A stretch of DNA of 64,000 bases from a bacterium (GCA_030648955.1 JAUSHB010000010.1:13556-77555), one strand, 5' to 3'. Positions 26,429 through 61,103 are shown, counted from the stretch's first letter. The notes: generated by a model not told the origin, from the sequence alone. Numbers and translations: made by a program.

Positions 26429-26450
26429 GGTTAAACCAATATTAAAGTTA

Positions 26451-26469
26451 AAAAATCAAAGTTTAAAAT
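26451..26469. repeat. AT-rich element core AAAAATCAAAGTTTAAAAT (family copy i)
   Basis: The same 19-mer, or its reverse complement, recurs at 37703-37721, 57190-57208 and, as a variant, at 60924-60956. Confidence 0.6.
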
Positions 26470-26550
26470 TTTTGTATTCGCCTGTCTGCGTGCATCGCAC
26501 AGGCAGGCCAGCGACGAATACCATGATTTTTCATTTTGATATTTGCATTT

Positions 26551-27513
26551 TTATTTTTCCCTAAGAACTAGGCCAAGATTCCCAAGCGCCCGCCTGATTT
26601 CCTGAATTCCCTTTTCGCCAAGTCCCTCGAGCTCAAGAAGATCTTCTTCACTTTTCTTGGAAAGTCCCCCTACGGTTCTGATGTTTGCGCTTGCAAGAGC
26701 ATTCGCAGTACGCGTCGAGAGATCGAGACTTTCGACTTTCATTTTTGAAACTTCTTCTTCGTCGGTGGTTTTGATTGCGTTTCCTTCGCTAATATCAACT
26801 CCACTTGAAACAAACTCTTCTTCCTTAAATCCAACAATCGACTTAAGTTGATTGATCATTATCTCGATTGATTTCTCGAGTGCTTCACGTGGAGTAAGTG
26901 TTCCATCTGTCTCAATGGAAATTTTGAGCCTGTTGTGGTCTGTCCTATCACCTACGCGCATGTTTTCTACTTCGTAATTCACGCGACGAATTGGAGTAAA
27001 TATAGCATCTACCGCAATAGTTCCAATGTCCACTTTTTCTTTTTGATGTACATCTTTTGCAATATACCCGAGACCTTTCTCGACTCTCAATTCTATATCA
27101 AGCGTTGTTCCCTTGTCAGTAATAGTAGCGATCGGAGCATCTTTTGATAATACTTCAACTTGACCGGGAACTTTGATGTCTGCCGCCGAAACATTTTTTA
27201 CACCCTTCACCGTCAATGTTACGGTTTGCGGTTCATCAGTCAACATCTTGAACCGTACTTTTTTTAAATTAAGCAATATGGTGATAACATCTTCTTTCAC
27301 GCCTTGAATGGTTGAAAACTCATGTGACACGCCACTGATCTTTACAGACGTAATCGCCGCTCCCGGAAGAGACGAGAGAATGATCCTTCGTAATGAATTA
27401 CCAAGTGTGTGACCATATCCCGGGTACAAACCGTCAATCTCGTAAACACCGGAGATTGCATCTTCGGAGATTACACGAGGTTTTGAGGGAAGAATGACAT
27501 TGTATTCAGGCAT
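26551..27513 (-). CDS. rpoA: DNA-directed RNA polymerase alpha subunit
   Basis: N-terminal dimerisation domain and a C-terminal domain (...EDLLELEGLGEKGIQEIRRAL). Confidence 0.9.
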   Translation of the reverse strand: MPEYNVILPSKPRVISEDAISGVYEIDGLYPGYGHTLGNSLRRIILSSLPGAAITSVKISGVSHEFSTIQGVKEDVITILLNLKKVRFKMLTDEPQTVTLTVKGVKNVSAADIKVPGQVEVLSKDAPIATITDKGTTLDIELRVEKGLGYIAKDVHQKEKVDIGTIAVDAIFTPIRRVNYEVENMRVGDRTDHNRLKISIETDGTLTPREALEKSIEIMINQLKSIVGFKEEEFVSSGVDISEGNAIKTTDEEEVSKMKVESLDLSTRTANALASANIRTVGGLSKKSEEDLLELEGLGEKGIQEIRRALGNLGLVLREK

Positions 27514-27557
27514 AAATTTCGAAATAATTAATAAATAATAAATTCCAATAATAAAAT

Positions 27558-28169
27558 TTATCTGCTGTAAAATTCAATAACTGAAGCTAGGTTAAACGTC
27601 ATCTCTCCTTCTGCAAGTTTAGGGCTCGAAGCAAGAGTCCCCTTAAGTTGCACCGGGTCCATTGTCGCCCAGTATGGAGTTTTATGCTTTTCGAGGCGCT
27701 CAGCTAATCCTGAAAAAAGTACTTTTGATTTGCTTCCCTCACGTATTGCAAGAACGTCTCCCGTTTTGACACGATACGATGGAACATTCATTCTTTTTCC
27801 ATTCACGGTAATGTGCCCATGTGACACCATTTGGCGAGCAGTCGATCGAGCAGTAGCAAACCCCAAGCGGTATGCGACATTATCAAGACGTGACTCAAGA
27901 TTCTCATAGAGTCGCTCAACGGGATTTGTTCCTGATTTCGAAGAAGCTTCTTTCACATAGTTTGAAAATTGTTTTTCACGAAGTCCATACGTATTGCGCA
28001 CCTTCTGCTTTTCACGAAGCTGAGTACCAAACTCGGAAACACTTCCACGATGCTTGCGATCGCTATCCCGAATACCAGGAGGGTACGGCTTTTTTACCGA
28101 GGCGCATTTATCGCCACGCCCACAAATACTTTCTCCTAATCTTCTACATGTTTTACAACTTATTCTCAT
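27558..28169 (-). CDS. rpsD: 30S ribosomal protein S4
   Basis: Zn-ribbon CKTCRRLGESICGRGDKC, and an S4 domain HGHITVNGKRMNVPSYRVKTGDVL. Confidence 0.9.
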   Translation of the reverse strand: MRISCKTCRRLGESICGRGDKCASVKKPYPPGIRDSDRKHRGSVSEFGTQLREKQKVRNTYGLREKQFSNYVKEASSKSGTNPVERLYENLESRLDNVAYRLGFATARSTARQMVSHGHITVNGKRMNVPSYRVKTGDVLAIREGSKSKVLFSGLAERLEKHKTPYWATMDPVQLKGTLASSPKLAEGEMTFNLASVIEFYSR

Positions 28170-28183
28170 ATCAGTTAAAATAA

Positions 28184-28615
28184 TTATACTCTTCGGGGTT
28201 TCTTTGGCCTTGGTCCATTGTGTGGAACAGGTGTTTTGTCGCTAATCCCCGTAATATCAATCCCTTTTGAAGCAAACGCTCTAATCGATGATTCACGACC
28301 AGAACCAACACCCTTCACCACCACATCAACTTCCTTGATTCCCATGAGTACTGCTTTCTCGCCAATTAGTTCTCCAACTTTTGCAGCTGCAAACGGTGTC
28401 CCCTTTTTAGCTCCAGAAAATCCAAGCGCTCCGCATGATGAAAATATAAGCGAGTTTCCTTCTTTGTCGGTCACAAGGAGTTTAGTGTTGTTATATGTTG
28501 ATTGAACATATAAAACACCTGCCGTAACACGTTTCTTGGGTACGCGCGCCGCCGATTGAGATATTTGCCCATCTTCTTTGTCTCCTCCCTTTTTTACAAT
28601 TCGTTTTTTTCCCAT
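28184..28615 (-). CDS. rpsK: 30S ribosomal protein S11
   Basis: ...FSSCGALGFSGAKKGTPFAA ... GIKEVDVVVKGVGSGRESSIRA ... DKTPVPHNGPRPKKPRRV. Confidence 0.9.
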   Translation of the reverse strand: MGKKRIVKKGGDKEDGQISQSAARVPKKRVTAGVLYVQSTYNNTKLLVTDKEGNSLIFSSCGALGFSGAKKGTPFAAAKVGELIGEKAVLMGIKEVDVVVKGVGSGRESSIRAFASKGIDITGISDKTPVPHNGPRPKKPRRV

Positions 28616-28694
28616 GTTTATTTTATAGCTTCGTTAGCTTCTAGCTTCTTAAGCTTCGGAAGCTTTTGAAGCTCGTGAAGCTGGAACCTTGTTT

Positions 28695-29075
28695 CTATGT
28701 CTTCTCAACCTTGCGACGACCAGAACCCATGGTTTTTCTCACGTTTCCGCGAACAGTGCGAGAATTTGTCTTTGTTCTTTGTCCGCGTACCGGCAATCCG
28801 CGCATATGACGACTACCACGATAACTTTTAATGTCCTTCAATCGCTTAATATTCATAGAGATCTCGCGCTTAAGATCTCCTTCAGTCTTAAATGTTTCAA
28901 TAATCTTTCTGATCTTATTTTCATCTGCAGGAGACACCTCTTTCCCCTTTGTATCAAAACTTACCCCCGCCTCATTAAGTATTTTTTGTGCACGAGCACG
29001 TCCAATACCAAAGATTGCGCTTAATCCTATCTCTAATCTTTTATTGTCTGGTATGGTAATTCCTGAAATACGCAT
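28695..29075 (-). CDS. rpsM: 30S ribosomal protein S13
   Basis: MRISGITIPDNKRLEIGLSAIFGIGRARAQKIL. Confidence 0.9.
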   Translation of the reverse strand: MRISGITIPDNKRLEIGLSAIFGIGRARAQKILNEAGVSFDTKGKEVSPADENKIRKIIETFKTEGDLKREISMNIKRLKDIKSYRGSRHMRGLPVRGQRTKTNSRTVRGNVRKTMGSGRRKVEKT

Positions 29076-29076
29076 A

Positions 29077-29175
29077 AAATGAAGTTTTTAAAGTTTATAA
29101 AGTTAAAAGTTTATAAAGTGAATCTCTTTGTTGTTGTCTGACTTTATGAACTTTATGGACTTTATAACTTTCTAC
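29077..29175 (-). promoter_or_regulatory. AT-rich imperfect inverted-repeat structure in the rpsM leader / rpmJ-rpsM spacer
   Basis: AAGTTTATAAAGT x2 ... GACTTTATGAACTTTATGGACTTTATAACTTT. Its position matches where S4 autoregulates alpha operons (established in E. coli). Confidence 0.35.
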
Positions 29176-29179
29176 TTGG

Positions 29180-29293
29180 TTATCCTTGCTTCTGCTTGTG
29201 TTTTGGGTTAACACAAATAACATACAAAAGTCGTTTTCGTCTGACCATTTTGCATTTTACGCAGATTTTTTTTACCGATGATCTAACCTTCAT
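29180..29293 (-). CDS. rpmJ: 50S ribosomal protein L36
   Basis: Not in the ORF track because it is under 60 aa. Minus-strand translation [37 protein letters not shown] (38 aa, CxxC ... C ... H zinc ribbon), in the canonical infA-rpmJ-rpsM position. Confidence 0.75.
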
Positions 29294-29358
29294 CCTATAA
29301 TGAAAACGGCATCGCTCTTAATTGACGGAGCAGATGTGCCATATTATTTTGTTATTAA

Positions 29359-29559
29359 TTATATTTCGACACAGTACTTACTCATAAAATTATGCTCTTC
29401 CTCCAATACTGTTTCCCCTGCCTGCCAGTAGATAGGACAGACGAGTACTGCGGGATTCGTAGCACATATACACAAAAATGAAACCAATGGTTTGCCATAC
29501 AAACCATCAGTAATAATTCTCAAAACCAAAACAATGGCTAAAATTCCGACTGCCTGCAC
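29359..29559 (-). CDS. hypothetical 66-aa hydrophobic protein between infA and rpmJ
   Basis: ORF only, with no recognised motif; it may be spurious. Confidence 0.25.
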   Translation of the reverse strand: MQAVGILAIVLVLRIITDGLYGKPLVSFLCICATNPAVLVCPIYWQAGETVLEEEHNFMSKYCVEI

Positions 29560-29628
29560 TACAATGCCCGGAGACGTAAAAATGCGAGTATTTTTGCACA
29601 GGAAGACCAGAGTGCGATTATATATTAT

Positions 29629-29874
29629 TTATAATCTTTTGACAACCCTTCCTTTCCCACCATAGGGGTCAAGCTTAATCATAACTTTATCGCCAATAAG
29701 AACCCGAATGCGATTAAACCGCATTTTCCCTGAAAGGTACGCGAGTATAACACTTTTATCAGGAAGCTCAACACGAAACATTGTATCCGGTAATGCCTCG
29801 GTGACAACCCCGTTAACGTGAAGGTCCTTATCGTCTTTTATATCAACCATTTTTTGATGTAAAGATATTATCAA
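29629..29874 (-). CDS. infA: translation initiation factor IF-1
   Basis: S1-like OB fold: ...GVVTEALPDTMFRVELPDKSVILAYLSGKMRFNRIRVLIGDKVMIKLDPY. Confidence 0.9.
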   Translation of the reverse strand: MIISLHQKMVDIKDDKDLHVNGVVTEALPDTMFRVELPDKSVILAYLSGKMRFNRIRVLIGDKVMIKLDPYGGKGRVVKRL

Positions 29875-30127
29875 ATATAAACAAAAGCGTCAAGGAAATA
29901 AAGCGAGTTCGGTACAGATTATCAACTAATCAATCTGCGCCAGATGTGGTTATCTAAAGCACTATCCCCCTCCCGTTTTAATAATATCCTGGCGGGGTAA
30001 TATTAAAACTATTAACAATACCTCCCCTATTTAAATAGTAGGTAGTTGTATGTCTCGCCTTTCCAGTATAAATGTTAAAATATATATACTTTATATCACC
30101 CTGGGATATCGCGATAGAAATCTACTT

Positions 30128-31564
30128 TTATTCAAGTGCTTCAACGATGGTAATGTTCTTAGGATTTTTAGGAAAATTTGTCATCCAAAATGGCTGTATA
30201 ACTGCTTCTGCTTTCCAAATTGAAGCATATTGACTAATAACATTCTTAAATCCATCTTTTTTAGAAACACCCGTAAGTTCCCCCTTAAGTTTTTCTTGGT
30301 CAACATCCCACACAATAGAAGCTTGACCCGATATCACCAGAGAAATGTCTTTTAGATTTCCTGGATCAAGAATCTCGTGTTTGGGCTCCACATCAAGTTC
30401 CTCAATATTACGAATTAGCAAAGGACTTCCGTCATATGAGTCATCTATTTTTTTGACGATAAACCCACTAAGAATGCTTCTATTGAACATAACACCGTAC
30501 AGTGAGCCTTTTACCGTGATATGAGTCGGATTTTGAGGATTTATTGCCTCAAGGTCATTAAATATTATGAATATGGTGCTATCGTAGAGGATAAAACCCT
30601 CCGGAATCTGTGCTCGCGCTTTTTTAATGAGTTCACCTCGCAATGATTCTTTTAAGCGAGCAACTGCTTTATTTTGATCCTCTTCCGAAGGGACTTTTAC
30701 CTTGCCAGAAAACCCTCCCATCAAAGGAGTCTGGGATCGAGCATAAAATTTTGTATAACGGGGATCACCCTTAAAACCAGGAATGGTAAAATCTGATGGA
30801 CCACTGTTGTATTCTTCGCCCGGAGCGTCTCCATAAACTTTCGCTTCAACGCTTCCCGGGGTGGTTTTACCTCCCGCAACAGACATTCCGGGCACTACGA
30901 TTGAGTTATCAATACGATAAATTTTTCCGCTCTTTGATTCAAACCGTGTATTTTTAATCAATCGCTGACTTGCTGTACTATATTCGTTGTAAATTTTTAT
31001 TGTTCCCGAAGCTTTTTTTGTTATCTCTTTCTCAAGTGTTGCGGGAATATCTTCCGACATTTCTTCATTGGGGAGAGGAATCTTTTGGTAAGGAACGAAC
31101 CCTTCTTCGGTTGTATTTTCTCGCGCAACAATATCCAACTCAAGGGAAACAGATTTATTAAGTGGTATTATTTTAATTGTTGCTCCAAAAAAAATAGTGG
31201 AAAATGCAACACCAAGCGTGCCAACAATGACCACTACGGCAAGAATCCAAAGTACAAAATGAGAAGATTTTTTTTTGACATTATTTGAATTGCTTATCCG
31301 TGAAGACATACCGCTGCGAGAATGCTCGAAATCAGACACGTTCGATTCTGTGTGGTACGACTTCTTTATCAAGCGAGGAAGAAAATTTTCTGGCTGACCA
31401 CTTTGTAAAATCATTGGTGGTTTCTCGACAGTATCGTGTAAATCACGTGATTGTGTTGGGGCACTATTGGACGATGCACCAGGAATCTCACCTGAAACAT
31501 TTTTGAACCCTTCTTTCATCCTCTTGGAGGGAAACACGACATCCTGAATAATTCTTCTTGCCAT
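30128..31564 (-). CDS. single-pass membrane protein with a large extracytoplasmic domain (hypothetical; possibly PilN/O- or FtsQ-like)
   Basis: Cytoplasmic N-terminus of about 120 aa, then a TM segment FVLWILAVVVIVGTLGVAFSTIFFG, then about 330 aa of beta-rich domain. Confidence 0.55.
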   Translation of the reverse strand: MARRIIQDVVFPSKRMKEGFKNVSGEIPGASSNSAPTQSRDLHDTVEKPPMILQSGQPENFLPRLIKKSYHTESNVSDFEHSRSGMSSRISNSNNVKKKSSHFVLWILAVVVIVGTLGVAFSTIFFGATIKIIPLNKSVSLELDIVARENTTEEGFVPYQKIPLPNEEMSEDIPATLEKEITKKASGTIKIYNEYSTASQRLIKNTRFESKSGKIYRIDNSIVVPGMSVAGGKTTPGSVEAKVYGDAPGEEYNSGPSDFTIPGFKGDPRYTKFYARSQTPLMGGFSGKVKVPSEEDQNKAVARLKESLRGELIKKARAQIPEGFILYDSTIFIIFNDLEAINPQNPTHITVKGSLYGVMFNRSILSGFIVKKIDDSYDGSPLLIRNIEELDVEPKHEILDPGNLKDISLVISGQASIVWDVDQEKLKGELTGVSKKDGFKNVISQYASIWKAEAVIQPFWMTNFPKNPKNITIVEALE

Positions 31565-31596
31565 AAATTTCTTAGTATTGTATCAAATAAAAAAAA

Positions 31597-32787
31597 TTAT
31601 ATATGTCCGAGCTCGACAATACGATCAGCAAACAATGCTTCAACAACAATGAACGGGTCTTTTTCGGTCTGCGGACTGAAAATGGAGAATTTTCCCATGG
31701 TTGCATTATCGAGCAACGTGACTTCAAATGGTGATCCTGTTCCGGTAAATTCTCCTAGACTTGGGGATGTGAGACAATCAAAAAACCATGGAGCAACATC
31801 AGCGTCCGAAGTGAAGAAAACTGTATTCGGAAGTGAAATATCATCAGAAAGACTTCGGAGTCCCTCTTTGAGCGAATAGGTCCATTCCCCCTTTGATTCA
31901 TTAAGAATTTTTTGAATCTTTACCTTAGTACTATCGTTCGTCTTCCCTTCACGATACATGGTGTAGAGTGAGGCAACTTCTTCCGGTATCGTATTTAATC
32001 CACTTGATAGTCGTCGTAGTAAATAATTCTTCCCCAAGGGAAATGACGCCGTCTCGAGAAGAACATTGCTTTTCACCAATGATATGTCCGCAACTTCGCC
32101 ACTGATATCCATAAATAAGAAGTCGCTCTTGTGTGAGAAAATATCGCGTATCGTGCTAAATGCGGTAAGTGAAAATGAACTAAATTTAATATTTCGTGAA
32201 CCAAAAATTTTAGATACGCGAGATTTCACTGAACTCAATACTCTTTTGGGGACCATGCTGATGTAGAGTGATATCTCAAGATTTTTTGCACGCATGCCGT
32301 ACGGATTATCTGTAACATATCCATTCAACTTCATTTGAATGGTATGCGTTTCCATAATTTCTACTTCTTCCTCCCCCATACGTTTATACTTGCCAATATT
32401 GTGTGCCTTAAAACTTTCGATTTCACTCTCAACAAGATCATCAATACCATGTCTACTTACTGCAAATTCTTTACCTTGTTTCATCTTTATCACACGAGTC
32501 TGAGATACATACCATGGAGATGAAAAAACGCATAAAAAACTTCGTGGATTTTGCATTCCTGACTTCTGCATCCTTACCAACACCTTTTCAAGCGTCTCGA
32601 GCATAGAAGAAAGAAATCTCCCGAAATTAAGATCACTTTGAAATACCATACTTTCCCGAGCACTCCAAAGTATTTTTGGGGTAGAACCAGCCTCAAAGGA
32701 AATAAGCGCTCCACCAATACTCGCTGAACCAATATCAAAGACTGCAATGGTAGTCTTTTTGTCGGATTTTTTTAAAAAAGAGAACAT
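31597..32787 (-). CDS. actin-like ATPase (ASKHA fold; FtsA/PilM-like)
   Basis: Phosphate-1 motif IAVFDIGSASIGGAL and phosphate-2 motif FLFMDISGEVADISLV. It lies upstream of the membrane protein at 30128. Confidence 0.45.
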   Translation of the reverse strand: MFSFLKKSDKKTTIAVFDIGSASIGGALISFEAGSTPKILWSARESMVFQSDLNFGRFLSSMLETLEKVLVRMQKSGMQNPRSFLCVFSSPWYVSQTRVIKMKQGKEFAVSRHGIDDLVESEIESFKAHNIGKYKRMGEEEVEIMETHTIQMKLNGYVTDNPYGMRAKNLEISLYISMVPKRVLSSVKSRVSKIFGSRNIKFSSFSLTAFSTIRDIFSHKSDFLFMDISGEVADISLVKSNVLLETASFPLGKNYLLRRLSSGLNTIPEEVASLYTMYREGKTNDSTKVKIQKILNESKGEWTYSLKEGLRSLSDDISLPNTVFFTSDADVAPWFFDCLTSPSLGEFTGTGSPFEVTLLDNATMGKFSIFSPQTEKDPFIVVEALFADRIVELGHI

Positions 32788-32893
32788 ACATGTTCAGTAT
32801 AGCACAATAGAAAATAAGCTATGTGGAAAATTGAATCGTTAGAGCACTGAAACGTCTAGCCATAACAACCGTGGTGAATTTCCATAGGAAACA

Positions 32894-37601: not shown

Positions 37602-37604
37602 GAT

Positions 37605-37740
37605 GATAATTCAAAATGTAAATATCAAAATGTAAAATTACAGTTTAAAATTTAAAGACAAGGAAGGATTGTGCTGTTTTTCTTTTTGAATTTTCATTTG
37701 TGATTTTAAACTTTGATTTTTTAATTTGTTGTAACAGAAT
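37605..37740. repeat. AT-rich palindromic element (family copy ii) upstream of the MgtC gene
   Basis: CAAAATGTAAAT direct repeats on one arm, and the reverse complement of AAAAAATCAAAGTTTAAAATC at 37703-37721 on the other arm. Confidence 0.5.
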
Positions 37741-37818
37741 TCCATTCCTTTAATTAATAGTACTAGAAAGGATGGGGACGTGCAAATAAGGGGGGTGTGG
37801 TGAGTATCGCCACACGAG

Positions 37819-44065: not shown

Positions 44066-44157
44066 ATGTTCCTTGTATCATATCGCACAATATCGATTTT
44101 AGGTAGTGGAATAAAGCTTCCAGAGCTTCATAAGCTTCGTTAGCTTTCTGAAGACTT

Positions 44158-44192
44158 AAAAGGGATTTGGAAGCAAGGCTTCCAAATCCCGC
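44158..44192 (-). terminator. intrinsic terminator GGGATTTGGAAGC-AAG-GCTTCCAAATCCC plus T-run (minus strand)
   Basis: 13-bp perfect stem. It lies downstream of the 44226 stop and is embedded in a GAAGCTTC-rich spacer. Confidence 0.65.
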
Positions 44193-44225
44193 AAGCTCCT
44201 GAAGCTATTGAAGCTCTGTCTTTGT

Positions 44226-51861: not shown

Positions 51862-51873
51862 AAAACAAAAAGA

Positions 51874-52839
51874 TTACTTTTTTTTCAGTGATGGGTAGAG
51901 TTCGGGGTCAATCGTACGGTCAAAGCATGTTTTCCCAACACCGTGTTGCCAATTTTCATCAAGGCCATTCCCGTATCCCTTGGCTGGAATTGGCATAGGA
52001 ACCGGGCGAGAAGTTTCGTAAGACACTTGACCGCCTTGGTTTGAGGCGCCAAAGGTAGCACAGAGTTTAAATGCATTCTTCCCCGTAGTTTCATATCCAT
52101 ACGCCTCCCCAGAAACAGGGTCCGTCGGAACAATAAACCCACCGATGGGATCATGAAGTTGATCGAGTGTCTCTGGTAATTTCTCTTTTTGCTGCCAGTA
52201 ATTAACAATTTGCCATTGGATACTGCTCAGTGCTTGGACTCGTTGATCATCAAGCCGAACCAGACGTTGTGCTTGGGGGGATCCCATCACCATAAAACCA
52301 ACAACAATTGAGACAAGGATGAACAATGTGGATCCCCAAACAAAATACCTACGACCCTTTTCTTGAGTAAACTTCCCATGAATATCTGACATGTAATACC
52401 CAAAAATAGAACCAATCACTGCCAGCACGACGAGTACTTTGAGAATAAAGCGCGTAGTAATTTCTCCCCCGAGAAATGTATTGATGAGCACGATAAGATC
52501 TACCGCGATAATTACACTTGCGATAAATAAGGTGAGGAACGTGAGCCATTTACGAACCGAGAGTTCCTTTTTCTCTGGGTTTTTTTCAATATCACGATTG
52601 AGGATCCATGAAAACAAAATATGGAGCGGGAAAATAATAACAAGTGAAGCAATAGTCCATCGAATGGTTGAAGAATATGGATCGATATACATCTGCAACG
52701 GATCAGGGAACACGCGATTAATTACCTCAAATAAGAGGTTGAGGATACTCACCACACTCACATACAGTGTTGCAATCACGGCGAGATTAAGAAAAAAATC
52801 TTTAGGAGTTGTTTTTGGTTTTTGTATTGGTGTTTCCAT
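51874..52839 (-). CDS. multi-TM membrane protein with a C-terminal soluble domain (hypothetical)
   Basis: 321 aa with about 5 TM segments. Confidence 0.5.
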   Translation of the reverse strand: METPIQKPKTTPKDFFLNLAVIATLYVSVVSILNLLFEVINRVFPDPLQMYIDPYSSTIRWTIASLVIIFPLHILFSWILNRDIEKNPEKKELSVRKWLTFLTLFIASVIIAVDLIVLINTFLGGEITTRFILKVLVVLAVIGSIFGYYMSDIHGKFTQEKGRRYFVWGSTLFILVSIVVGFMVMGSPQAQRLVRLDDQRVQALSSIQWQIVNYWQQKEKLPETLDQLHDPIGGFIVPTDPVSGEAYGYETTGKNAFKLCATFGASNQGGQVSYETSRPVPMPIPAKGYGNGLDENWQHGVGKTCFDRTIDPELYPSLKKK

Positions 52840-52898
52840 AATTAAGAATTATACAAAAATTAAGCCCCCATGTCCATGGGGGCTTAACGCAATAGTTA

Positions 52899-53562: not shown

Positions 53563-54663
53563 TTAGATCTTAAATTCTACCACATCGCCATCTTTAACAA
53601 CATATTCCTTCCCTTCCGTCCGTACAAGCCCTTTTTCGCGAGCTTTTGCGTAGGAACCGACGCCTAAAAGGTCTTGCCAAAATATGACTTCTGCGCGGAT
53701 AAACTTGTCCTTAAAATCATTATGAATCGCGGTTCCAGCAACGGGCGCTGTGGAATCCTTTTTGATCGTCCATCCGCGTGTTTCATCTTCTCCTGTCGTG
53801 AAGTATGTGATGAGTCCCAACATCTCATATCCTTTTTTAATAAGCTCGTTAATTCCCGAACCGTCCTTGACACCCAATTCTTTTTTAAACTCCTCGCGTT
53901 CCATGCCAGTAATCCCCGAGAGTTCTTGTTCAACTTTTGCGTCAATCACTACCCATGAGGCGTTCATCCCGTTGAGAAAATCAGTAAGTTTTTTGAATCG
54001 CTCGTCTTGCATCTCATCAAGATTTTTCCCGCCAGCTTTTTTATTGAGTGCGTAAAGAATTGGCTTCGTGGTAAGAAAGTTGAGGCTTTTGACGGCATTT
54101 TTTTCATCATCAGTAAGAATTGCGGATGACGCGAGCTTGCCTTCTGTTAATACTTTGTCCAGTTTTTCCAAAACCGCCTTTTCGGCGACTGCAACTTTGT
54201 CTCCCCGCTTTGCATCCTTTTCAACACTCCCGAGTCGTTTGGTAACGGTCTGTAAATCTGCAAGAACAAGTTCGAGATTGATCACTTCGATATCATCCAC
54301 AGGGTCTACACGGTTGCTTACATGAATCACGTTATCGTCTTCAAAAATCCGCACAACCTCAAGTATCGCGTCCGTCTCGCGAATGTTCGTAAGAAATTTA
54401 TTTCCCAACCCCTCGCCTTCAGAAGCGCCTTTCACGAGTCCTGCAATATCCACAAACTCAACTGCCGCCGGAACTGTTTTTGCGGATTGTGAAAATTCAG
54501 ATAATTTTCCAAGACGCTCATCGGGTACACCAACAACACCTACCGACGGATCGATGGTGCAGAATGGATAGTTCTCCGCGGGAACGGATTTTTCCGTCAA
54601 CGCGTTAAATAGTGTAGACTTTCCGACATTCGGTAAACCAACAATTCCTATAGATAACGACAT
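53563..54663 (-). CDS. ychF: ribosome-binding ATPase YchF (Obg-family GTPase fold with TGS domain)
   Basis: GIVGLPNVGKSTLFNALT and a C-terminal TGS domain (...KDGDVVEFKI). Confidence 0.9.
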   Translation of the reverse strand: MSLSIGIVGLPNVGKSTLFNALTEKSVPAENYPFCTIDPSVGVVGVPDERLGKLSEFSQSAKTVPAAVEFVDIAGLVKGASEGEGLGNKFLTNIRETDAILEVVRIFEDDNVIHVSNRVDPVDDIEVINLELVLADLQTVTKRLGSVEKDAKRGDKVAVAEKAVLEKLDKVLTEGKLASSAILTDDEKNAVKSLNFLTTKPILYALNKKAGGKNLDEMQDERFKKLTDFLNGMNASWVVIDAKVEQELSGITGMEREEFKKELGVKDGSGINELIKKGYEMLGLITYFTTGEDETRGWTIKKDSTAPVAGTAIHNDFKDKFIRAEVIFWQDLLGVGSYAKAREKGLVRTEGKEYVVKDGDVVEFKI

Positions 54664-54873
54664 AATAAATGCGATGAAATAAAGTATTAGATTACCACTA
54701 CTCGCCCCGTAGTCAGCTTTGCTGTACTACTGGGGCCCACATTGGGAAGCCCTACGATGCCGATAGATAAAGACATGAGTGATTATGATTATGGCGACAC
54801 GAAATAACTAGTTTACCACAACACTAACCCCCGTGCCATAAAAAGCACGGGGGTAAAACAAGTACCTATTACT

Positions 54874-55089
54874 TCACTGAAAATCGATTGCTCGATATGG
54901 GCAACATGAGTCACTGGCATTATGCCCCACATTGCCACACACGGAACAAAATTCGACCTTATTGGAAGAGGGCTTCTTCTCTATTTCCCCTCCTTGAACT
55001 TCCCCTACGCCTGCATGAAATACTCCCTCTGCGAAGAAAATTGATGCTGTTGTGTTGCCATTTTGCACAATACTCCGTTGTGTACTCAT
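54874..55089 (-). CDS. possible small Cys-containing protein (71 aa)
   Basis: GGGAGG lies 9 nt upstream of the ATG, and a hairpin CCCCCGTGC-N6-GCACGGGGG sits at 54828-54853 downstream. C-x2-C ... H ... CC motif (CSVCGNVGHNASDSCC). Three overlapping ORFs exist here and the choice rests on the RBS. Confidence 0.3.
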   Translation of the reverse strand: MSTQRSIVQNGNTTASIFFAEGVFHAGVGEVQGGEIEKKPSSNKVEFCSVCGNVGHNASDSCCPYRAIDFQ

Positions 55090-55127
55090 ATGAATATCCT
55101 CCCAGTTGACAAGTTACGACGAGAAAA

Positions 55128-55157
55128 ATGTACTGAAATGTACTGAAATGTACTGTG
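55128..55157. repeat. 10-bp tandem direct repeat ATGTACTGAA x2.8 upstream of the small ORF
   Basis: The helical-turn periodicity is typical of response-regulator (OmpR/PhoB-type) binding sites. Confidence 0.5.
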
Positions 55158-55240
55158 ACTGTTCCCAATCATACAGATACCTTCGTGATAAGAACATGAA
55201 GACACCGAGAACGCCCTTACATTTTTAACTCAAGTTTACG

Positions 55241-55825
55241 TTATATCCCTTTGCGTCCAAAATCGCGAATTTTTTCAATAACAGCTTTTTTCTTTGCATC
55301 GCTCATGCGCGGCAACGGACCAATCGTCGTAAGCCACACAGGGCGAACACCGCAGAACATTAGAATTGCGCGGCGAAGTTCATTGGTGAAATCACCAAAG
55401 AGCATGCGCGTATGAAACGGGTTTGTGTCCATTGTGATGACCACGCGACCACTTTTACCGCGCAAGAGACCATCCCATCCAAAATCAACCTTATGAAACT
55501 TAAAAGAAAATCCGGGAATAAATGCCCGATCAAAAAACCCCTTGAGAAGCGCGGGCATTGTTCCCCACCAGTTAGGGTAGATAACGACAATATGATCAGC
55601 CCATTTAATATCCTCTTGCGCTTTCAAGAGGTCGGGTTCGAGCGCCTGAATCACCTTGTATCCCTTGTGTAAAATCGGATCAAACACAAGATCACCGATA
55701 TTAGTACGCCTGACTTCATGCCCTGCACTTTTAGCACCCTCTTCATAGGCGGATGCAAGGGCTCCCGACATGGTCTCTTTGTCAGGATGACCAACAAGAA
55801 GATAGATTTTTTTTGCCATAATCAA
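55241..55825 (-). CDS. NAD(P)H dehydrogenase (quinone), flavodoxin-like fold (MdaB/YwrO-like)
   Basis: KIYLLVGHPDKETMSGALASAY ... VIYPNWWGTMPALLKGFFDR. Confidence 0.7.
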   Translation of the reverse strand: MIMAKKIYLLVGHPDKETMSGALASAYEEGAKSAGHEVRRTNIGDLVFDPILHKGYKVIQALEPDLLKAQEDIKWADHIVVIYPNWWGTMPALLKGFFDRAFIPGFSFKFHKVDFGWDGLLRGKSGRVVITMDTNPFHTRMLFGDFTNELRRAILMFCGVRPVWLTTIGPLPRMSDAKKKAVIEKIRDFGRKGI

Positions 55826-55895
55826 TTTTTAATGAGTGATACGATAATCGTAGCAAAACTAAAGGTTTTTGCAAATGATATCGAGGAACAACTAA

Positions 55896-56219
55896 TTAGT
55901 GTTTGAAAAATTCATACGTAAAAAATAGGAAAAGCGTGAGCGCGCCGAAAATTAAAGTCCACGCAAGAGCGCGCATGAAGCGGGTGGTACTATCGCTTGT
56001 ATCTATTTTTTTTATAAAAAAATATCCAGAAGTGACCGCAACAAAAAAAATAGTCGCCCATATTCCTTTCCCCACCCAATGGTGGTAATGCGCGTCCTTG
56101 AGAAGTTTTTTAAGCGGTGCATATAGATCGGCGACAATAGTAAGCACGACAATGAAAATTACCGCGGAGATCGCTCCAATAATACATGCGTTTACCAGCT
56201 TTGTTTTTGAAATTTCCAT
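55896..56219 (-). CDS. small membrane protein (hypothetical)
   Basis: 107 aa with 3 TM segments. Confidence 0.4.
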   Translation of the reverse strand: MEISKTKLVNACIIGAISAVIFIVVLTIVADLYAPLKKLLKDAHYHHWVGKGIWATIFFVAVTSGYFFIKKIDTSDSTTRFMRALAWTLIFGALTLFLFFTYEFFKH

Positions 56220-56225
56220 ATATTT

Positions 56226-56684
56226 TTAGCGCACAGCGCCCGATATGATAATGCCGGCTAGTGCGATTAAAAGTCCTAATACAGTTATCGATCCAGCAAG
56301 AAATACGGCCCCTTTTCGTAACCCCTCATTCTGTGATAAATCTTGATTCATTTTCCATATAACGATCAGCAAAGCAAGGGCTGCAAAAGGAAGGAAGAGA
56401 AAAATATGTTCCTTTGCTTCCGTAAAAATTTTGTGCGCCCACGGATACGCTCCGGCAACAATTTTTGGCTTTTGAATATCTCCATAATACACAACGTAAT
56501 AGTAACCCCCTGAAAACCATGAGAAAAGATACGAGAAAAAAGAGATAAGCGAGGATTTCTTGAGGAAGGATACGGATGGAGATTTTTTGATAAGTTCCAA
56601 CCATACCGCATAGGACGCGGCAACAGCTATGATTCCAAGAATCACATGGGCGATCAAGGAAAATGTTAGTAGTGGGGTAATCAT
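56226..56684 (-). CDS. membrane protein (hypothetical)
   Basis: 152 aa with 4 TM segments. Confidence 0.4.
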   Translation of the reverse strand: MITPLLTFSLIAHVILGIIAVAASYAVWLELIKKSPSVSFLKKSSLISFFSYLFSWFSGGYYYVVYYGDIQKPKIVAGAYPWAHKIFTEAKEHIFLFLPFAALALLIVIWKMNQDLSQNEGLRKGAVFLAGSITVLGLLIALAGIIISGAVR

Positions 56685-57184
56685 GCTTTTGCGCTAGAGG
56701 ATTTTCTAATAAGATCCAGAATGATACTTCCCGCAATAACTGCGATCGTATAGTATAGCATCACCTCAAAATATGAATATGACTTCGCATTGGTAAGAAA
56801 AACTCCAACAATCAGAGCTCCATACCATGATACAAAAGAAAATGCACTTCCCCAATAGAGAGAAATTTTATGCGCCTGAAGGAGGAGCGCATTAGCGGCA
56901 ATAACAATGACAATAGTGAGTTTTGCCCAGAGAAGTGGATTATAAAGTTTGAATGCCTGCCCGTTCAGCTGATAGTAAAGAAGAAACCCGAAACCAGAAA
57001 GAAGGGCGAGGATGAGACCCACTCGCACTACTGTGAATGTTGTTTTAAGAAAATCACCTTCTACAGGGTCTACATGACCATCTCTAAGTGATTTGGTAAG
57101 AAAGATTTCAATAAACGTTGCCCCGCCTACACCGAGAACGGTTCCAATGAGATGAACGATGACGAGAAATATATAAATGTCCAT
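56681..57184 (-). CDS. membrane protein (hypothetical)
   Basis: 167 aa with 5 TM segments; its start overlaps the stop of the next gene by 4 nt. Confidence 0.45.
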   Translation of the reverse strand: MDIYIFLVIVHLIGTVLGVGGATFIEIFLTKSLRDGHVDPVEGDFLKTTFTVVRVGLILALLSGFGFLLYYQLNGQAFKLYNPLLWAKLTIVIVIAANALLLQAHKISLYWGSAFSFVSWYGALIVGVFLTNAKSYSYFEVMLYYTIAVIAGSIILDLIRKSSSAKA

Positions 57185-57316
57185 GTTATAAAATCAAAGT
57201 TTAAAAATCAAAGTGCAAAATGGCATTGTAAAATTTAAAATTTTAGAGACCTTTCCCTTTTATTTTGCATTTTTAATTGTCATTTTTAATTTTGATATTT
57301 ACATTTTACATTTTTC
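57185..57316. repeat. AT-rich palindromic element (family copy iii) between copZ and the membrane-protein operon
   Basis: Arm 1 AAAATCAAAGTTTAAAAATCAAAGTGCAAAATGGCATTGTAAAATTTAAAATTTT. Arm 2 TTTTGCATTTTTAATTGTCATTTTTAATTTTGATATTTACATTTTACATTTTT is roughly its reverse complement. Confidence 0.5.
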
Positions 57317-57523
57317 TTACGTCGCCGTATATCCAAGTTCCGCAATCGACTTAATAATAGCATCTTTAGTCACTTTTGCCGAGTCAAACTCTACCTCTCC
57401 TTTCTTTTTATCGTAATCGACAAAGATAGATTTAACGCCATCCATCCCGGATACAAGCATTTGTATGCCAGTCGCGCATGCCCCGCAGTGCATTCCTCCT
57501 ATATCAAGTGTTATTTTTTCCAT
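57317..57523 (-). CDS. copZ: copper chaperone CopZ (HMA domain)
   Basis: MEKITLDIGGMHCGACATGIQ contains the G-M-x-C-x-x-C motif. Confidence 0.8.
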   Translation of the reverse strand: MEKITLDIGGMHCGACATGIQMLVSGMDGVKSIFVDYDKKKGEVEFDSAKVTKDAIIKSIAELGYTAT

Positions 57524-57728
57524 AGTGTTTTTTTAATCAAAAGGGTTGTAATCACATAATCTTACATCTCCCTGCCAACAATTACCAAAATACTCGAGAG
57601 AATTAATTCTTTTACCTCCAAATAAACTGTCATGTTGCCACACCGGCAATAAACTAAGGACGAGGATACTTATTACAATTACGACACCGGACTTCATGCC
57701 CAACACTATATCACTTCTCTATACTACG

Positions 57729-57752
57729 CTCAATCGGCGGGACATAACGCTT
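57729..57752. repeat. 24-bp direct repeat CTCAATCGGCGGGACATAACGCTT (copy 1; copy 2 at 58139..58162 inside the copA 3' end)
   Basis: Exact 24/24 match. The pair brackets a 386-bp low-GC segment carrying ORF 57761..58084. Confidence 0.85.
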
Positions 57753-57760
57753 TTATATTT

Positions 57761-58084
57761 TTAAAAAATGATTATATGACCAAGCCAAATAAGAATAAAA
57801 AAGATATTAATAGAAAACGCAATAAAGCTAGCGATGACAAGCAAGGCATTAGGAGCATGTTCTCCTTTTTCTTGCTTTTCTTTTAAGGACTGCTGGCTAA
57901 ACATTGAAAGAATACCCACCGAAAAAGTAACAAAAATGATTACAACACTAATAGAAATTATTCCTACCCCGGAACATATATGATATTTGTAATTAATCAC
58001 CTCACAAAATGCCACCATAAAACCGAGAATAATCGATGTAATTACCACAAGGTGGTTTATATCTATATTTATTTTTTTCATCAT
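57761..58084 (-). CDS. small hydrophobic protein encoded on the low-GC insert
   Basis: 107 aa with 3 TM segments. Very AT-rich compared with the flanking copA. Confidence 0.4.
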   Translation of the reverse strand: MMKKINIDINHLVVITSIILGFMVAFCEVINYKYHICSGVGIISISVVIIFVTFSVGILSMFSQQSLKEKQEKGEHAPNALLVIASFIAFSINIFFILIWLGHIIIF

Positions 58085-58122
58085 AAAGTTTAATCGCGTT
58101 AGATGTTATAGAATTTGAATAA

Positions 58123-60468
58123 TTACTTAACGCCCTTCTCAATCGGCGGGACATAACGCTTGAGGAGGAGGGAGTTGAGAACGACTGATACTGATGAGAA
58201 TGCCATGGCGAATCCCGCGATTTCTGGGCGGAGCGTTGCTTGCGAGAGGCTCAAGAAATATGTTCCGAATCTTCCCAAGTTTTCACTCATCACAATCACC
58301 CAAGCCGCGGGGACGCCACCCACGAACGCAGTCTTTGTTATCAGGAGATGAATTCCTCCGGCGACTGGAATAGCAATAACGTTATAAAAGAACGCCCAGA
58401 AAAGATTCTGCCAAACTTTCTTAATTGTTTTTCCGGAAAGTTGGATCGCGGTCACCACGTCGCGAAGATCGTCTTTCACGAGCACGATTTCGCCCGTTTC
58501 AATAGCGACATCAGTTCCCGAACCGATTGCAATACCGACATCCGCTTGCGCAAGCGCAGGCGAGTCATTAATACCGTCTCCCACCATCGCGACAGTTTTT
58601 CCTTCTGCCTGAAGCTGTTTAACCATTTTTGCTTTATCTTGCGGCAACACTTCCGCCATCACCCGATCGATGCCGACTTCACGTCCGATCGCTTCTGCTG
58701 TTTTTTTATTATCGCCAGTAATCATCACGATCTCTTTGCCCATTTTTTTCAATTCCGCGATAGCTTCTTTTGCAAATGGCTTCAATGTGTCCGCCATTGC
58801 GATCATCGCGGTAGGAATTCCATCGACTGCCATAAACACAACTGTTTTTGCTTCGCCCTGCAATGTATCAACCTTATCTTGGTATAAAGCAATATCAATA
58901 CCGAGGTTTTTCATATACGCAGGATTTCCAATTTCAACTTTCTTATCGCTTCCCTTATCAAAAACCATCCCATACACGCCGTATCCAGAAATAGCTTTAA
59001 AATCTTTCGGCGATACGAGTTCCCCTTGCGCTTTTCCTTTCTCAATGACTGCGCGGGCAAGAGGATGTTCGGATCCTTGTTCTACGGACGCCGCGAGGAA
59101 TACTGCTTCCCCCTCATCAACTTGGGCTAATGGAAGCATGAGAAAATTTGTTACCACTGGCTTTCCTATTGTAAGTGTTCCCGTTTTATCAAACACAATC
59201 GCCGTAACCTTGTATGCTTTTTCAAGCGCTTCGCCGCCCTTCAAAATAATTCCATATTTTGCCGCACGTCCGATTCCCACCACGAGCGCTGTCGGTGTCG
59301 CAAGACCCATGGCGCACGGGCACGAGATCACGAGCACTGCAATCGTCGTCATGAGCGCCGCCCTAAACGGCAGCTCCGCAATGAAATACCAGCCGACAAA
59401 AACCAATATCGAAAGAACCACCACGGCAGGCACGAAGTATTCGCTGATTTTATCCACAAGATCCTGAATGGGGGCGCGAGATGCCTGTGCTTCTTCAACC
59501 ATTCTGACAATTTGAGATAAAAGCGTGTTTTTCCCGACTTTGGTCGCTTTGAACCTAATAAGTCCTTCTTGGTTTATGGTGGCGCCGATTACTTCTTCTC
59601 CGACACCCTTGCCAACCGGAAATGATTCTCCTGTTACTACCTTTTCATCAATATGAGTCCTCCCTTCAACAATAATGCCGTCCACGGGGATTTTCTCTCC
59701 CGGACGCACCACAACAATATCTCCCTCTTTAATTTCATTGATGGGAACCGTCATTTCCTTTCCATCGCGCACCACATGAGCTTCTTTTGCTTCAAGCTTA
59801 AGAAGTTCTTTGATAGCGTTTGACGCTCTCCCGCGCGCGAGCACTTCAATGTATCTGCCGAGAAGAATAAACACGAGAAGCGCAGCAGAGCTTTCCCAAA
59901 ATGGATGGCTTATATTAAACCAAAGGAATCCGATCATACTATAAAAATATGCGGCGGAAGTTCCGAGGACTACGAGCACATCCATATTTGCCGATCCGAC
60001 ACGAATCGCCGTGAATGCATTCCTATAAAATGACCAGCAAATAACAAATTGAATGGGCGTTGAAAGTATCCAGTAGAAGTAATTGAGATCGATCCCCCAG
60101 AGCTGATGCACGTGCTGGAGATTGAACATATGAACCGCCATGTAATACACAACAATGGGAGCGGCCAAAATAAATGCCGCGATCACGCGGTTTCGCGCCT
60201 GTTTGATCTGTTTTGCTTCTTTTTGTTCTTCTTCTTCGATCGTTGCGCTCTCTTCATCGGGACGAATCACATCATATCCGAGCTTATTGACAAACGCGTC
60301 AATTGTTTCGAGAGAAATTTTTGATTCATCAAACTCAATCGCTGTTTTTGCCGAGCCATAATTTGTTTTTACGCTCGTGACACCCGGCTGCTTGCCAACC
60401 AACTTGTCGATGAGAATCGAACACGATGCGCAATGCATTCCTTTTACTTTGAGTACTAGTTTTGCCAT
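58123..60468 (-). CDS. copA: copper-translocating P1B-type ATPase
   Basis: N-terminal HMA (GMHCASCS), a CPC motif in the TM region (SCPCAMGLATP), DKTGTLT and GDGINDSPAL. Confidence 0.9.
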   Translation of the reverse strand: MAKLVLKVKGMHCASCSILIDKLVGKQPGVTSVKTNYGSAKTAIEFDESKISLETIDAFVNKLGYDVIRPDEESATIEEEEQKEAKQIKQARNRVIAAFILAAPIVVYYMAVHMFNLQHVHQLWGIDLNYFYWILSTPIQFVICWSFYRNAFTAIRVGSANMDVLVVLGTSAAYFYSMIGFLWFNISHPFWESSAALLVFILLGRYIEVLARGRASNAIKELLKLEAKEAHVVRDGKEMTVPINEIKEGDIVVVRPGEKIPVDGIIVEGRTHIDEKVVTGESFPVGKGVGEEVIGATINQEGLIRFKATKVGKNTLLSQIVRMVEEAQASRAPIQDLVDKISEYFVPAVVVLSILVFVGWYFIAELPFRAALMTTIAVLVISCPCAMGLATPTALVVGIGRAAKYGIILKGGEALEKAYKVTAIVFDKTGTLTIGKPVVTNFLMLPLAQVDEGEAVFLAASVEQGSEHPLARAVIEKGKAQGELVSPKDFKAISGYGVYGMVFDKGSDKKVEIGNPAYMKNLGIDIALYQDKVDTLQGEAKTVVFMAVDGIPTAMIAMADTLKPFAKEAIAELKKMGKEIVMITGDNKKTAEAIGREVGIDRVMAEVLPQDKAKMVKQLQAEGKTVAMVGDGINDSPALAQADVGIAIGSGTDVAIETGEIVLVKDDLRDVVTAIQLSGKTIKKVWQNLFWAFFYNVIAIPVAGGIHLLITKTAFVGGVPAAWVIVMSENLGRFGTYFLSLSQATLRPEIAGFAMAFSSVSVVLNSLLLKRYVPPIEKGVK

Positions 60469-60486
60469 ACATTATTTATTATTATA

Positions 60487-60918
60487 TTACCGTGTTTCCA
60501 TAAGAGATTTTATATGAAGCTTGCCCACCTGATCTATGTGGCCACGGGCATGCCCATTTACCTCCCCATCACCACATGGGACAGAGCAATAAAATGGAAA
60601 TTCGCCCGGTTGTGTCGCCACAAATTGAATGTTGATGGTTGAAAGTGCCGGAATTCTTTCTGAAACGCCAAACGCGTCGATAGCAATGCCGTGGTCATAA
60701 CTATCTTCGTTTACTATCTTCAACATAACTTTGTCGCCCTGATTGACGGTTATATCGTCGGGTTCAAATTTCCATTCGTCTTTCTTTGCGGTCAGAGTAA
60801 ATTCGCGGACAATCCCCGTATCAAGGGGTTTCCGTTCGTCTCCTGAAAAAAAACGAAATGCGACACCAGCGCCAATGAGCACGACGAGCACTATTCCTAA
60901 TGTAATGTATTTATTCAT
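60487..60918 (-). CDS. cupredoxin-like small secreted protein
   Basis: N-terminal TM/signal segment; C-terminal ...HGIAIDAFGV ... FYCSVPCGDGEVNGHARGH ... M has Cys/His spacing resembling CuA / cupredoxin copper sites. Confidence 0.5.
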   Translation of the reverse strand: MNKYITLGIVLVVLIGAGVAFRFFSGDERKPLDTGIVREFTLTAKKDEWKFEPDDITVNQGDKVMLKIVNEDSYDHGIAIDAFGVSERIPALSTINIQFVATQPGEFPFYCSVPCGDGEVNGHARGHIDQVGKLHIKSLMETR

Positions 60919-61103
60919 GGCTACAAAATCAAATTTTAAAAATCAAAAATTAAAGTCACAATGTAAAGATAAAAATTAAAACATTAACATGCGCCTGTTA
61001 AGTCTTATAATCCTCTTACGTTTATAATTCCGATTTTACCATTCATTACTTTTAAATTTTCAATTGTCATTTTGCATTTTGACATTTACATTTTTATTTT
61101 TTG
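60919..61103. repeat. AT-rich palindromic element (family copy iv)
   Basis: CAAAATCAAATTTTAAAAATCAAAAATTAAAGT ... TTTTGCATTTTGACATTTACATTTTTATTTTTTGTCATTTA. Confidence 0.5.

Follow-up and report, generated by a model that had tools for sequence, protein, structure and literature searches.

Introduction

The S23p-type intervening sequences (IVSs) known from Coxiella burnetii, Leptospira, Brucella and Xanthomonas are insertions of about 430-760 nt in helix 25 or 45 of 23S rRNA genes; they carry a PF05635 open reading frame (ORF) of ~120 amino acids (aa), have terminal inverted repeats that form a stem and heptameric tandem repeats on the 5′ side beside the ATG of the ORF, are distributed sporadically in a way that suggests horizontal transfer, and have long been suspected of being mobile (PMC4990558). 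The Coxiella IVS is described as selfish, its terminal inverted repeats forming a stem that is cut by RNase III and its S23p ATG being directly preceded by tandem heptamers that vary between strains (PMC4990558). ORFs of the 23S_rRNA_IVP type are also present in rRNA insertions of the candidate phyla radiation (CPR; bioRxiv 10.1101/2024.02.27.582315). Here we analyse four AT-rich imperfect palindromes in a 64,000-nt stretch of DNA from a CPR bacterium (GCA_030648955.1, JAUSHB010000010.1:13556-77555; hereafter the window, with positions counted from its first letter), and we consider it likely that they are gene-less miniature derivatives of a selfish IVS-type element that is common in Patescibacteria (CPR) and whose parent carries a gene for a PF05635 four-helix-bundle protein. 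Descriptions of S23p rRNA IVSs as selfish or mobile go back to the early 1990s, but we know of no mechanism, protein function or comparable population of copies reported for them.

A preliminary description of the window had compared the palindromes with MITEs, small transposable elements bounded by inverted repeats, or, alternatively, with UP-element or operator modules. What is added here is the apparent identity of the parent, which on sequence grounds would link the palindromes to S23p/IVS elements. Literature searches with sequence strings, and with CPR combined with MITE, palindrome or promoter terms, found no description of these elements at operon junctions, of their miniature form or of their ends.

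Results

Four related palindromes in the window

The four copies (e26, e37, e57 and e60; 118-176 bp) are listed below with the strand that corresponds to the sense of the ancestral ORF described in the next section. The genes flanking all four spacers lie on the minus strand; e26, e57 and e60 are thus antisense to their host genes, and e37, inverted relative to these three, is the only window copy that shares the sense of its host genes.

e26, 26439..26556, plus strand: in the rpoA-rplQ spacer (26429-26550; rplQ start at 26428)
e26 left A-rich repeat, about 26439-26475: contains the exact 19-mer AAAAATCAAAGTTTAAAAT
e26 centre, 26473-26517: nested GC-rich palindrome, GTATTCGCCTGTCTGCG...CGCACAGGCAGG..CGAATAC
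e26 right T-rich repeat, about 26518-26556: hidden Markov model match at 26520-26557, E = 3.8e-5
e37, 37607..37735, minus strand: upstream of mgtC (start 37601), in the GDSL hydrolase-mgtC spacer (37602-37818); profile E = 1.2e-9
e37 right T-rich repeat, 37607-37656: faces mgtC and ends 5 nt before its ATG
e37 left repeat, 37700-37735: contains the exact 19-mer
e57, 57190..57313, plus strand: in the spacer (57185-57316) between the HMA copper-chaperone gene (stop 57317-57319) and a gene for a 167-aa protein (start 57184); profile E = 3.1e-7
e57 left repeat, 57190-57250; right repeat, 57258-57313
e60, 60925..61100, plus strand: in the spacer (60919-61103) between a DsbD-like gene (stop 61104-61106) and a cupredoxin gene (start 60918); profile E = 1.6e-7
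e60 left repeat, 60925-60985; right repeat, 61050-61100

The 19-mer on which the preliminary description was built is indeed exact at 26451-26469 (plus strand) and, reversed, at 37703-37721 (minus strand), as a mismatch scan confirmed. At three or fewer mismatches it has 9 matches in the 64-kb window, every one of them within the four named spacers (0.31 expected; 9 reached in 0/100 shuffles). The supposed one-base variant at 57190-57208 is related to it in another way, through an exact common 17-mer, AAAATCAAAGTTTAAAA, shifted by one base, and appears in the scan as two 2-mismatch matches (at 57189 and 57203); the looser variant reported at 60924-60956 holds up, scoring as two 3-mismatch matches. 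The arms are approximately reverse-complementary, as had been proposed, over 26-32 nt and at 73-81% (37626-37651 with 37703-37728, 26 nt, 81%; 57190-57221 with 57262-57293, 32 nt, 75%; 60952-60981 with 61071-61100, 30 nt, 73%), and within every arm Tandem Repeats Finder detects repeats with periods of 7 and 13-14. A second common block, ATTTTGAYATTTRCATTTT, which had not been singled out earlier, is found in all four copies; in e37 this type of 19-mer block stops 11 nt short of the mgtC ATG. Aligned with one another, the window copies have two unlike conserved ends, TTAAAAAATCAAAGTTTAAAAT (the block noticed first) and TGTCATTTTNCATTTTGATATTTACATTTT, around variable centres, that of e60 being longer and more degenerate than those of the other three, and a profile of the T-rich arm picks out exactly these four copies in the 64 kb.

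The genes assigned to the flanks, and the position of the palindromes upstream of minus-strand starts, were also correctly given: the downstream genes encode ribosomal protein L17 (rplQ), MgtC, the 167-aa protein and the cupredoxin-like protein. A Pfam match was not found for the 167-aa protein, whose designation as a membrane protein is a reading of its hydrophobic sequence only. The stop codon of rpoA (TAA, 26551-26553) falls within the right repeat of e26. Logan short-read contigs from this organism break off within e26, e37 and e60, as is expected of repeats. Palindromes of the GCCTGTC type, like the one nested in e26, occur in the centres or flanks of the copies at L106 and L011 (L numbers designate loci in other genomes), and the GC-rich palindrome of e26 may represent a second small repeat family inserted into the AT element.

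A longer element with the same ends encodes a PF05635 protein

Complete elements of ~450 bp, with the same ends as the short copies, are present at L009, L086 and L212; the first two came from an inspection of ORFs between distant arm pairs. Between both ends of L009 (in a metagenome-assembled genome, MAG, of Saccharibacteria) and of L086 (in a Sedimentisphaerales MAG) lies an ORF of 123 aa, which scores above the gathering threshold of the Pfam family PF05635 ('23S rRNA-intervening sequence protein'; E = 3.4e-18 and 4.5e-12, respectively); the L009 ORF also matches PDB 2RLD (E = 2.4e-17). The ATG and first codons of the ORF (MQND..KFKNEF) are located within the A-rich left repeat of ~45 nt, and the complementary T-rich right repeat, with its 19-mer block, begins directly after the stop codon. 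The same architecture recurs at L212, around one of the homologues of the protein (P0239), between lepB and hisS, where the order is lepB stop, 1 nt, left repeat with the ATG, ORF and stop, right repeat, 5 nt, hisS ATG; in one contig an element of the P0239 type has a different downstream gene. Folded as RNA, the full L212 element pairs its 5′ end with its 3′ end in both the minimum-free-energy and the centroid structure (z = -3.8, equalled by 0/100 shuffles).

Alignments of the left ends and of the right ends group the four window copies with the ORF-bearing ones, and the ancestral reading frame survives in e57 over roughly codons 1-10, with substitutions and, at codon 4, a stop in frame (..GCAAAATGGCATTGTAAAATTTAAAAT). 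Because the ends are common to ORF-bearing copies and the window holds no PF05635 gene, we read the window copies as internal-deletion derivatives. The protein has at least 3434 homologues, of which the best 120 are 123-134 aa long (mostly 123) and 78-100% identical (at most 89% besides the query itself); most of these 120 lie on very short contigs, and their sources carry the labels of many different CPR phyla (Terry-, Doudna-, Yanofsky-, Moran-, Beckwith- and Wolfebacteria among those named). This conservation is far above that of RpoA among the relatives of the window (64-70%). Recent horizontal spread would explain such identity, with strong purifying selection as a possible alternative.

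The complete element thus resembles the S23p IVSs in its length, its PF05635 ORF, its terminal inverted repeats, its tandem heptamers beside the ATG and its sporadic distribution, and it differs from them in where it lies and how it is built. All four window copies stand between protein-coding genes and not in a 23S or 16S rRNA gene, the location that defines an IVS, and the elements in general occupy stop-start junctions in either orientation; the ATG lies within the terminal repeat, and there is an abundant gene-less miniature form. The heptamer periodicity of the IVSs is present in all arms. A stem is provided for by the arm complementarity in the window and by the L212 fold, but the stems of the window copies are no stabler than those of shuffled sequences. 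The PF05635 ORF is present at L009, L086 and L212 and absent from the window copies.

Diversity-generating retroelements are common in CPR. Their Avd protein, which the ORF family of the complete element resembles, is a pentameric four-helix bundle (PMC10053308). Unlike an avd gene, the PF05635 gene here is solitary and enclosed by inverted repeats, and neither a reverse transcriptase nor template/variable repeats were seen next to the ORF-bearing copies.

Distribution, ends and placement of the short copies

A contig scan of species-representative genomes with ATTTTGAYATTTRCATTTT gave at least 120 loci. Extended AT-rich context surrounds the block in about 60 (~half) of the loci listed, mostly in CPR MAGs with several loci each and, in several of these, with two to three copies per 8 kb. 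The extended consensus reads ATTTTACATTGTCATTTTKCATTTTGATATTTRCATTTTNAATTT; its A-rich inverted partner lies 10-60 nt upstream, always on the one side (32/122 upstream vs. 0/122 in the downstream control). Most loci carry labels of Patescibacteria (Saccharibacteria, Paceibacterota, Staskawicz-, Yanofsky-, Doudna-, Portnoy-, Brenner-, Niyogi- and Gottesmanbacteria, Parcubacteria), and similar heptad palindromes occur on contigs labelled Omnitrophota, Nitrospirota (58% G+C), Deltaproteobacteria (60% G+C), Stahlbacteria and Sedimentisphaerales; the contigs of 58-60% G+C with the sharp-ended ~45-nt consensus are L071 and L004.

From 33 extracted copies with both arms, the ends were inspected in 24. 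Canonical copies measure 100-125 bp, with sharp ends and inverted terminal repeats of ~45 nt built of heptad-like A4-5NN units (left end, WAATKNAAAATTAAAAAATCAAAA...ATGACAATGTAAAAT; right end, ATTTTACATTGTCATTTT...GATATTTRCATTTTNMATTW), and the flanks outside these ends are mutually unrelated and often not AT-rich. The complete and short copies sampled usually occupy the gap, a few nucleotides long, from a stop codon to the following ATG, in either orientation. By our reading of the 24 copies, the left end of sense-oriented ones lies 0-3 nt past the stop codon, or overlaps or supplies it, and the right end lies 4-6 nt before the ATG in most start-facing ones; because the right end sits a few nucleotides before the ATG, the distance from the 19-mer block to the ATG peaks at 11-12 nt (17/65). 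Crude ORF calling around about 50 copies, each turned so that its T arm points right, places 29 between co-directional genes in one orientation and 15 in the other, 6 between divergent genes and 0 between convergent ones.

Filled and empty sites in relatives

We compared the rpoA-rplQ junction across 80 loci with RpoA 64-89% identical, 79 of which also contain rplQ. The junction is 0-30 nt long in most of these 79 relatives, and the AT element occupies it only in the window and in L124/L125 (88% RpoA identity); L122 (89%) holds just a 31-nt T-rich half, and other periodic hairpin families fill the junction in other lineages.

For e57 and e60 the relatives were graded by their CopA homologues (L205/L209, 96-97% identical; L204, 91%; L206 and L210/L211, 89%; L207/L208, 83%). 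The DsbD-cupredoxin junction, which holds e60 in the window, is empty in L204, L206, L207/L208 and L210/L211, with 9-13 nt from stop to ATG. The junction between the HMA gene and the 167-aa gene, the site of e57, is likewise empty in L206, L210 and L211 ('TAG/TAA aac ATG') and in L204 ('TAG cattt ATG'), and the window keeps 'aac ATG' beside e57; in L207/L208 this site carries an AT-rich mini-palindrome of 54 nt and similar design. Different elements occupy both sites in L205 and L209, and the T arm has no match in L204-L208. Because close relatives (83-91% CopA identity) have empty junctions, which measure 3-13 nt, both e57 and e60 were gained recently, at tightly spaced positions within operons.

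Several other repeats were seen at such junctions. One family starts with ATGAATCCCGTTAGAG and ends with CTCTAACGGG directly before the host ATG, with a TAA 4 nt before that ATG (L124 2010-2136, L125 from 4058, L151, L142, L147, L205 from 14 and from 5157, L209 from 169); in close relatives of the window organism it uses the identical stop-start junctions rpoA-rplQ and DsbD-cupredoxin, and from its leading ATG it may be a remnant of an ORF-bearing element too. Tandem arrays of 7-8 nt resembling CGTAGAGC, with no inverted partner, directly follow stop codons at junctions matching the e60 and e57 sites (L209 at ~110-150 and 3614-3669, L205 at 4103-4143). At L127 (RpoA 70%) an A-rich/T-rich palindrome of 80-125 nt lies in every spacer of the ribosomal cluster (rpmJ-rpsM, rpsM-rpsK, rpsK-rpsD, rpsD-rpoA, rpoA-rplQ and rplQ-next), its T arm having the genome-specific form CTTTAATTTTTTAGCTTTACATTTTAATTTTTTT-ATG; a related family looks to have saturated that operon.

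Discussion

How an element of this kind might persist in operons can be sketched by analogy with the rRNA IVSs. Lying inside a host operon, it would be co-transcribed with the host genes; in the RNA its two repeats would pair into a long A-U-rich terminal stem, a likely substrate of RNase III, and the element would then be excised or the transcript split. RNase III excision is demonstrated for S23p IVSs; for the elements here we infer it. Tolerance would require that the gene-adjacent end permit expression of the downstream gene independently of a Shine-Dalgarno (SD) sequence or from a short leader. In the window genome, where SD-like sites are few and TATAAT-like boxes often lie close to the ATG, an AT-rich end 5-6 nt from an ATG probably fits the local mode of gene start, and an arm may even provide a start signal of its own. 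As for the degenerate copies in the window, they are probably relics in decay whose effects on expression, if any, are incidental. A further proposal, doubtful for the present, is that the PF05635 protein, homopentameric in those relatives whose structure is solved, is a mobility or maintenance factor that reads the approximately five heptads of each repeat as DNA or RNA and directs insertion into stop-start junctions; if it is, these elements move by a route other than transposition by a transposase, and the origin of rRNA IVSs and the ancestry of Avd proteins would be explained.

Several observations weigh against derivation of the palindromes from a selfish IVS-type parent. The parent is documented in other genomes and not in the window, where tblastn found no PF05635 gene and only its first codons remain. 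Neither a direct repeat nor a target-site duplication was found at the 24 well-bounded copies or in the filled/empty pairs, and no transposase-like ORF was found between distant repeat pairs in the loci inspected or among 10 scanned ORFs at 1-13 kb of the window, so that 'mobile' is here a statement about filled and empty sites and distribution, not about a mechanism. RNase III cleavage is carried over to these elements by analogy only. The window copies fold as RNA no better than shuffles (z = -2.2, 0.1, -1.05 and 0.18), and among 34 elements an arm is not more complementary to its own partner than to those of other copies (18.75 own vs. 21.63 cross); the short copies thus give no visible sign that pairing is maintained. 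The spacing of 5-6 nt to the ATG, together with 0 convergent and 6 divergent placements, hints that gene starts are selected for or targeted, a bias that a purely selfish model does not predict. Finally, the gene contexts depend on the crude ORF calling, and the taxonomic labels were taken as deposited, so that some may be wrong.

If the palindromes do descend from such a parent, CPR genomes hold the kind of copy population that has been wanting for S23p IVSs, with, in the material sampled, thousands of near-identical PF05635 genes in heptad-built inverted repeats, many of them at ordinary operon stop-start junctions and accompanied by miniatures and clean filled/empty sites. How the elements move and choose their targets, whether RNase III processes them and what the Avd-like protein does would then become directly testable questions. 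The elements also break short-read assemblies of CPR genomes, and they add 100-450 nt, and sometimes an extra small gene, to operons annotated as tightly coupled in 'streamlined' genomes.

The preliminary comparison with MITEs was largely right. The copies are small, with sharp ends and long inverted repeats at their termini, and have no complete gene, only remnant codons of the parent being left; there are several per genome (four in 64 kb here), with filled and empty orthologous sites; and a longer relative with the same ends exists. Two points differ: no target-site duplication could be shown, and what the longer relative encodes is a PF05635 protein without known transposase activity. We nevertheless weighed an ordinary DNA-transposon MITE, in which a conventional transposase acts in trans on the heptad-rich repeats and PF05635 is passenger cargo in some copies. 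Its small size, inverted repeats, both orientations, insertion polymorphism and copy number are all as such an element would have them, and many copies end in TAAT...ATTA, compatible with a TA target. The terminal base, however, varies as an inverted and not as a direct pair, AAAT...ATTT being as frequent as TAAT...ATTA, and a tentative TA-target model failed on the AAAT...ATTT copies; the TA or TTAA duplication that had been put forward as a check does not hold up, and the terminal W...W belongs to the inverted repeat. Moreover, the repeat pairs and the 10 window ORFs inspected lack a transposase-like ORF, and PF05635 is the only ORF found within these ends, with a start codon built into the left repeat, as would not be expected of passenger cargo. 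We therefore regard this explanation as unlikely.

Two families of described repeats are instructive in this respect. The Correia elements of Neisseria are, like the short copies, intergenic and co-transcribed, 100-190 bp long and bounded by terminal inverted repeats, with a hairpin RNA that RNase III can bind, outward promoter-like hexamers in the repeats, and filled and empty sites between strains; they have, however, 26-bp repeats, a TA duplication and an integration host factor (IHF) site, and are confined to Neisseria (PMC2649163, PMC2229807, PMC10969869). The elements here have heptad-built repeats of ~45 nt, no duplication that we could see, a range of many CPR lineages, and a parent that encodes PF05635 and not a transposase. 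Repetitive extragenic palindromic (REP) sequences are GC-rich hairpins of 20-40 nt, found preferentially at gene 3′ ends and in convergent spacers and associated with a Y1 transposase (REP-associated tyrosine transposase, RAYT). These and bacterial interspersed mosaic elements likewise form short multi-copy intergenic palindromes, often just past stop codons; the elements described here are, in contrast, AT-rich, 100-190 bp long and, among the roughly 50 copies placed, always beside a gene start and never convergent, and no RAYT or other transposase lies near them in the stretches inspected.

Quite unlikely, in our judgement, is a host regulatory cassette, in which the T-rich arm serves as a promoter and/or SD-independent leader, the A-rich arm is its UP-like or terminator partner, and selection has spread the whole. 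The sharp peak of 11-12 nt from block to ATG and the absence of convergent copies against 6 divergent ones would suit it, as would the outer arms conserved between orthologous copies upstream of a putative dnaJ (L053, L112). The genes downstream elsewhere include some that we take, from their N-terminal sequences and with no search, to be dnaK, dnaJ, fusA and rplF. There are also promoter-like sequences, TTGTCA-17-TACATT within the right repeat and, directed at the cupredoxin gene, TTGTGA-17-TAAAAT. By a loose test only 13/60 upstream regions of window genes have an SD-like site, and TATAAT-like boxes lie 1-14 nt ahead of the ATG in many genes (for example in the upstream regions listed at 8289-8912, 12513-13031, 16202-16723, 31597-32787 and 51874-52839), which suggests that leaderless or very-short-leader mRNAs are common in the window organism.

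Against a cassette, relatives express the same operons through junctions of 3-13 nt with no element, both orientations occur, and the sharply delimited ends are common to the gene-bearing element. Sigma-70-like sites show no excess over shuffles (13 vs. 9.7 ± 2.8), the best match is antisense, into the upstream gene, in three of the four window copies, and in a position-frequency table the adjacent T's are at least as conserved as the -35 and -10 positions. The same facts leave unsupported the earlier suggestion of a UP-element or operator for an AT-hook or nucleoid-type regulator, since the elements entered junctions which in relatives measure 3-13 nt, lie in both orientations, and show no more promoter-like conservation at the hexamer positions of their arms than elsewhere. 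By eye, the core does not fit the IHF consensus WATCAANNNNTTR (no formal scan was run), and motifs of the Hfq (ARN) and DnaA types do not fit either.

A structured cis-regulatory RNA kept for its fold, whether a ribosomal-protein leader or an intercistronic processing or stabilising hairpin, is very improbable. It would draw on the palindromic arms, on the copy in the rpoA-rplQ spacer and on the structured hairpins of other families in neighbouring spacers (z = -4.6, -4.0 and -6.7). The folds, though, are no better than shuffles, and a selected hairpin in the short copies was dropped on the arm co-variation test; three of the four copies are antisense in their host operons, and the downstream genes are functionally unrelated. 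Rfam gave no match at gathering score in the whole window, which contains no rRNA, and a permissive search of e57 and e26 returned only noise at E up to 10. Chance resemblance of low-complexity intergenic DNA, which is AT-rich here, in which heptads can arise by slippage and which holds other periodic arrays (AGCTTC, AAAGTTTAT, CGTAGAGC) in equivalent spacers, is effectively refuted by 9 matches where 0.31 were expected, by a sharp-ended ~45-nt consensus in dozens of genomes including contigs of 58-60% G+C, and by both ends being common to a protein-coding element.

Other repeats and features in the window

Strong hairpins built of 9-nt AGCTTCNNN units and their complement lie at 28616-28694 and 44100-44225 (fold z = -4.6 and -6.7). 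The rpsM-rpsK copy is kept at the orthologous junction in L125 and L123, and in L123 a related AGCTT hairpin fills the rpoA-rplQ junction. Just upstream of rpsM, at 29076-29180, a hairpin of AAAGTTTAT 9-mers and their complement (z = -4.0) is conserved in L125 and absent in L123. At 9671-9700, just upstream of the gene at 9002-9670 and beside a GC hairpin, the minus-strand reading AATTTTTGATATTTTTAAG resembles a solitary T arm, which the profile did not detect.

A separate dispersed repeat, ATACCAAAAATCCCCNGATTTTTCAA, has six plus-strand copies in the window (4292, 5726, 8142, 8937, 10201 and 10799; 0 expected by chance), followed in several by ..TGTGGGGATA; they lie in and around spacers of a region with methyltransferases, GNAT acetyltransferases, an NYN-domain protein and an ABC-F-like ATPase. 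In the copA-HMA interval, 57533-58084 holds ORFs of 107 and 57 aa where L205 (97% CopA identity) has one gene of 260 aa at 3085-3867, so that the window ORFs are possibly a broken gene. A perfect DnaA-box-like sequence, TTATCCACA, the single such box seen, lies in the last spacer at about 63960-63975, and in L206 and L207 the corresponding stretch upstream of the DsbD-like operon has TGTGGATAA.

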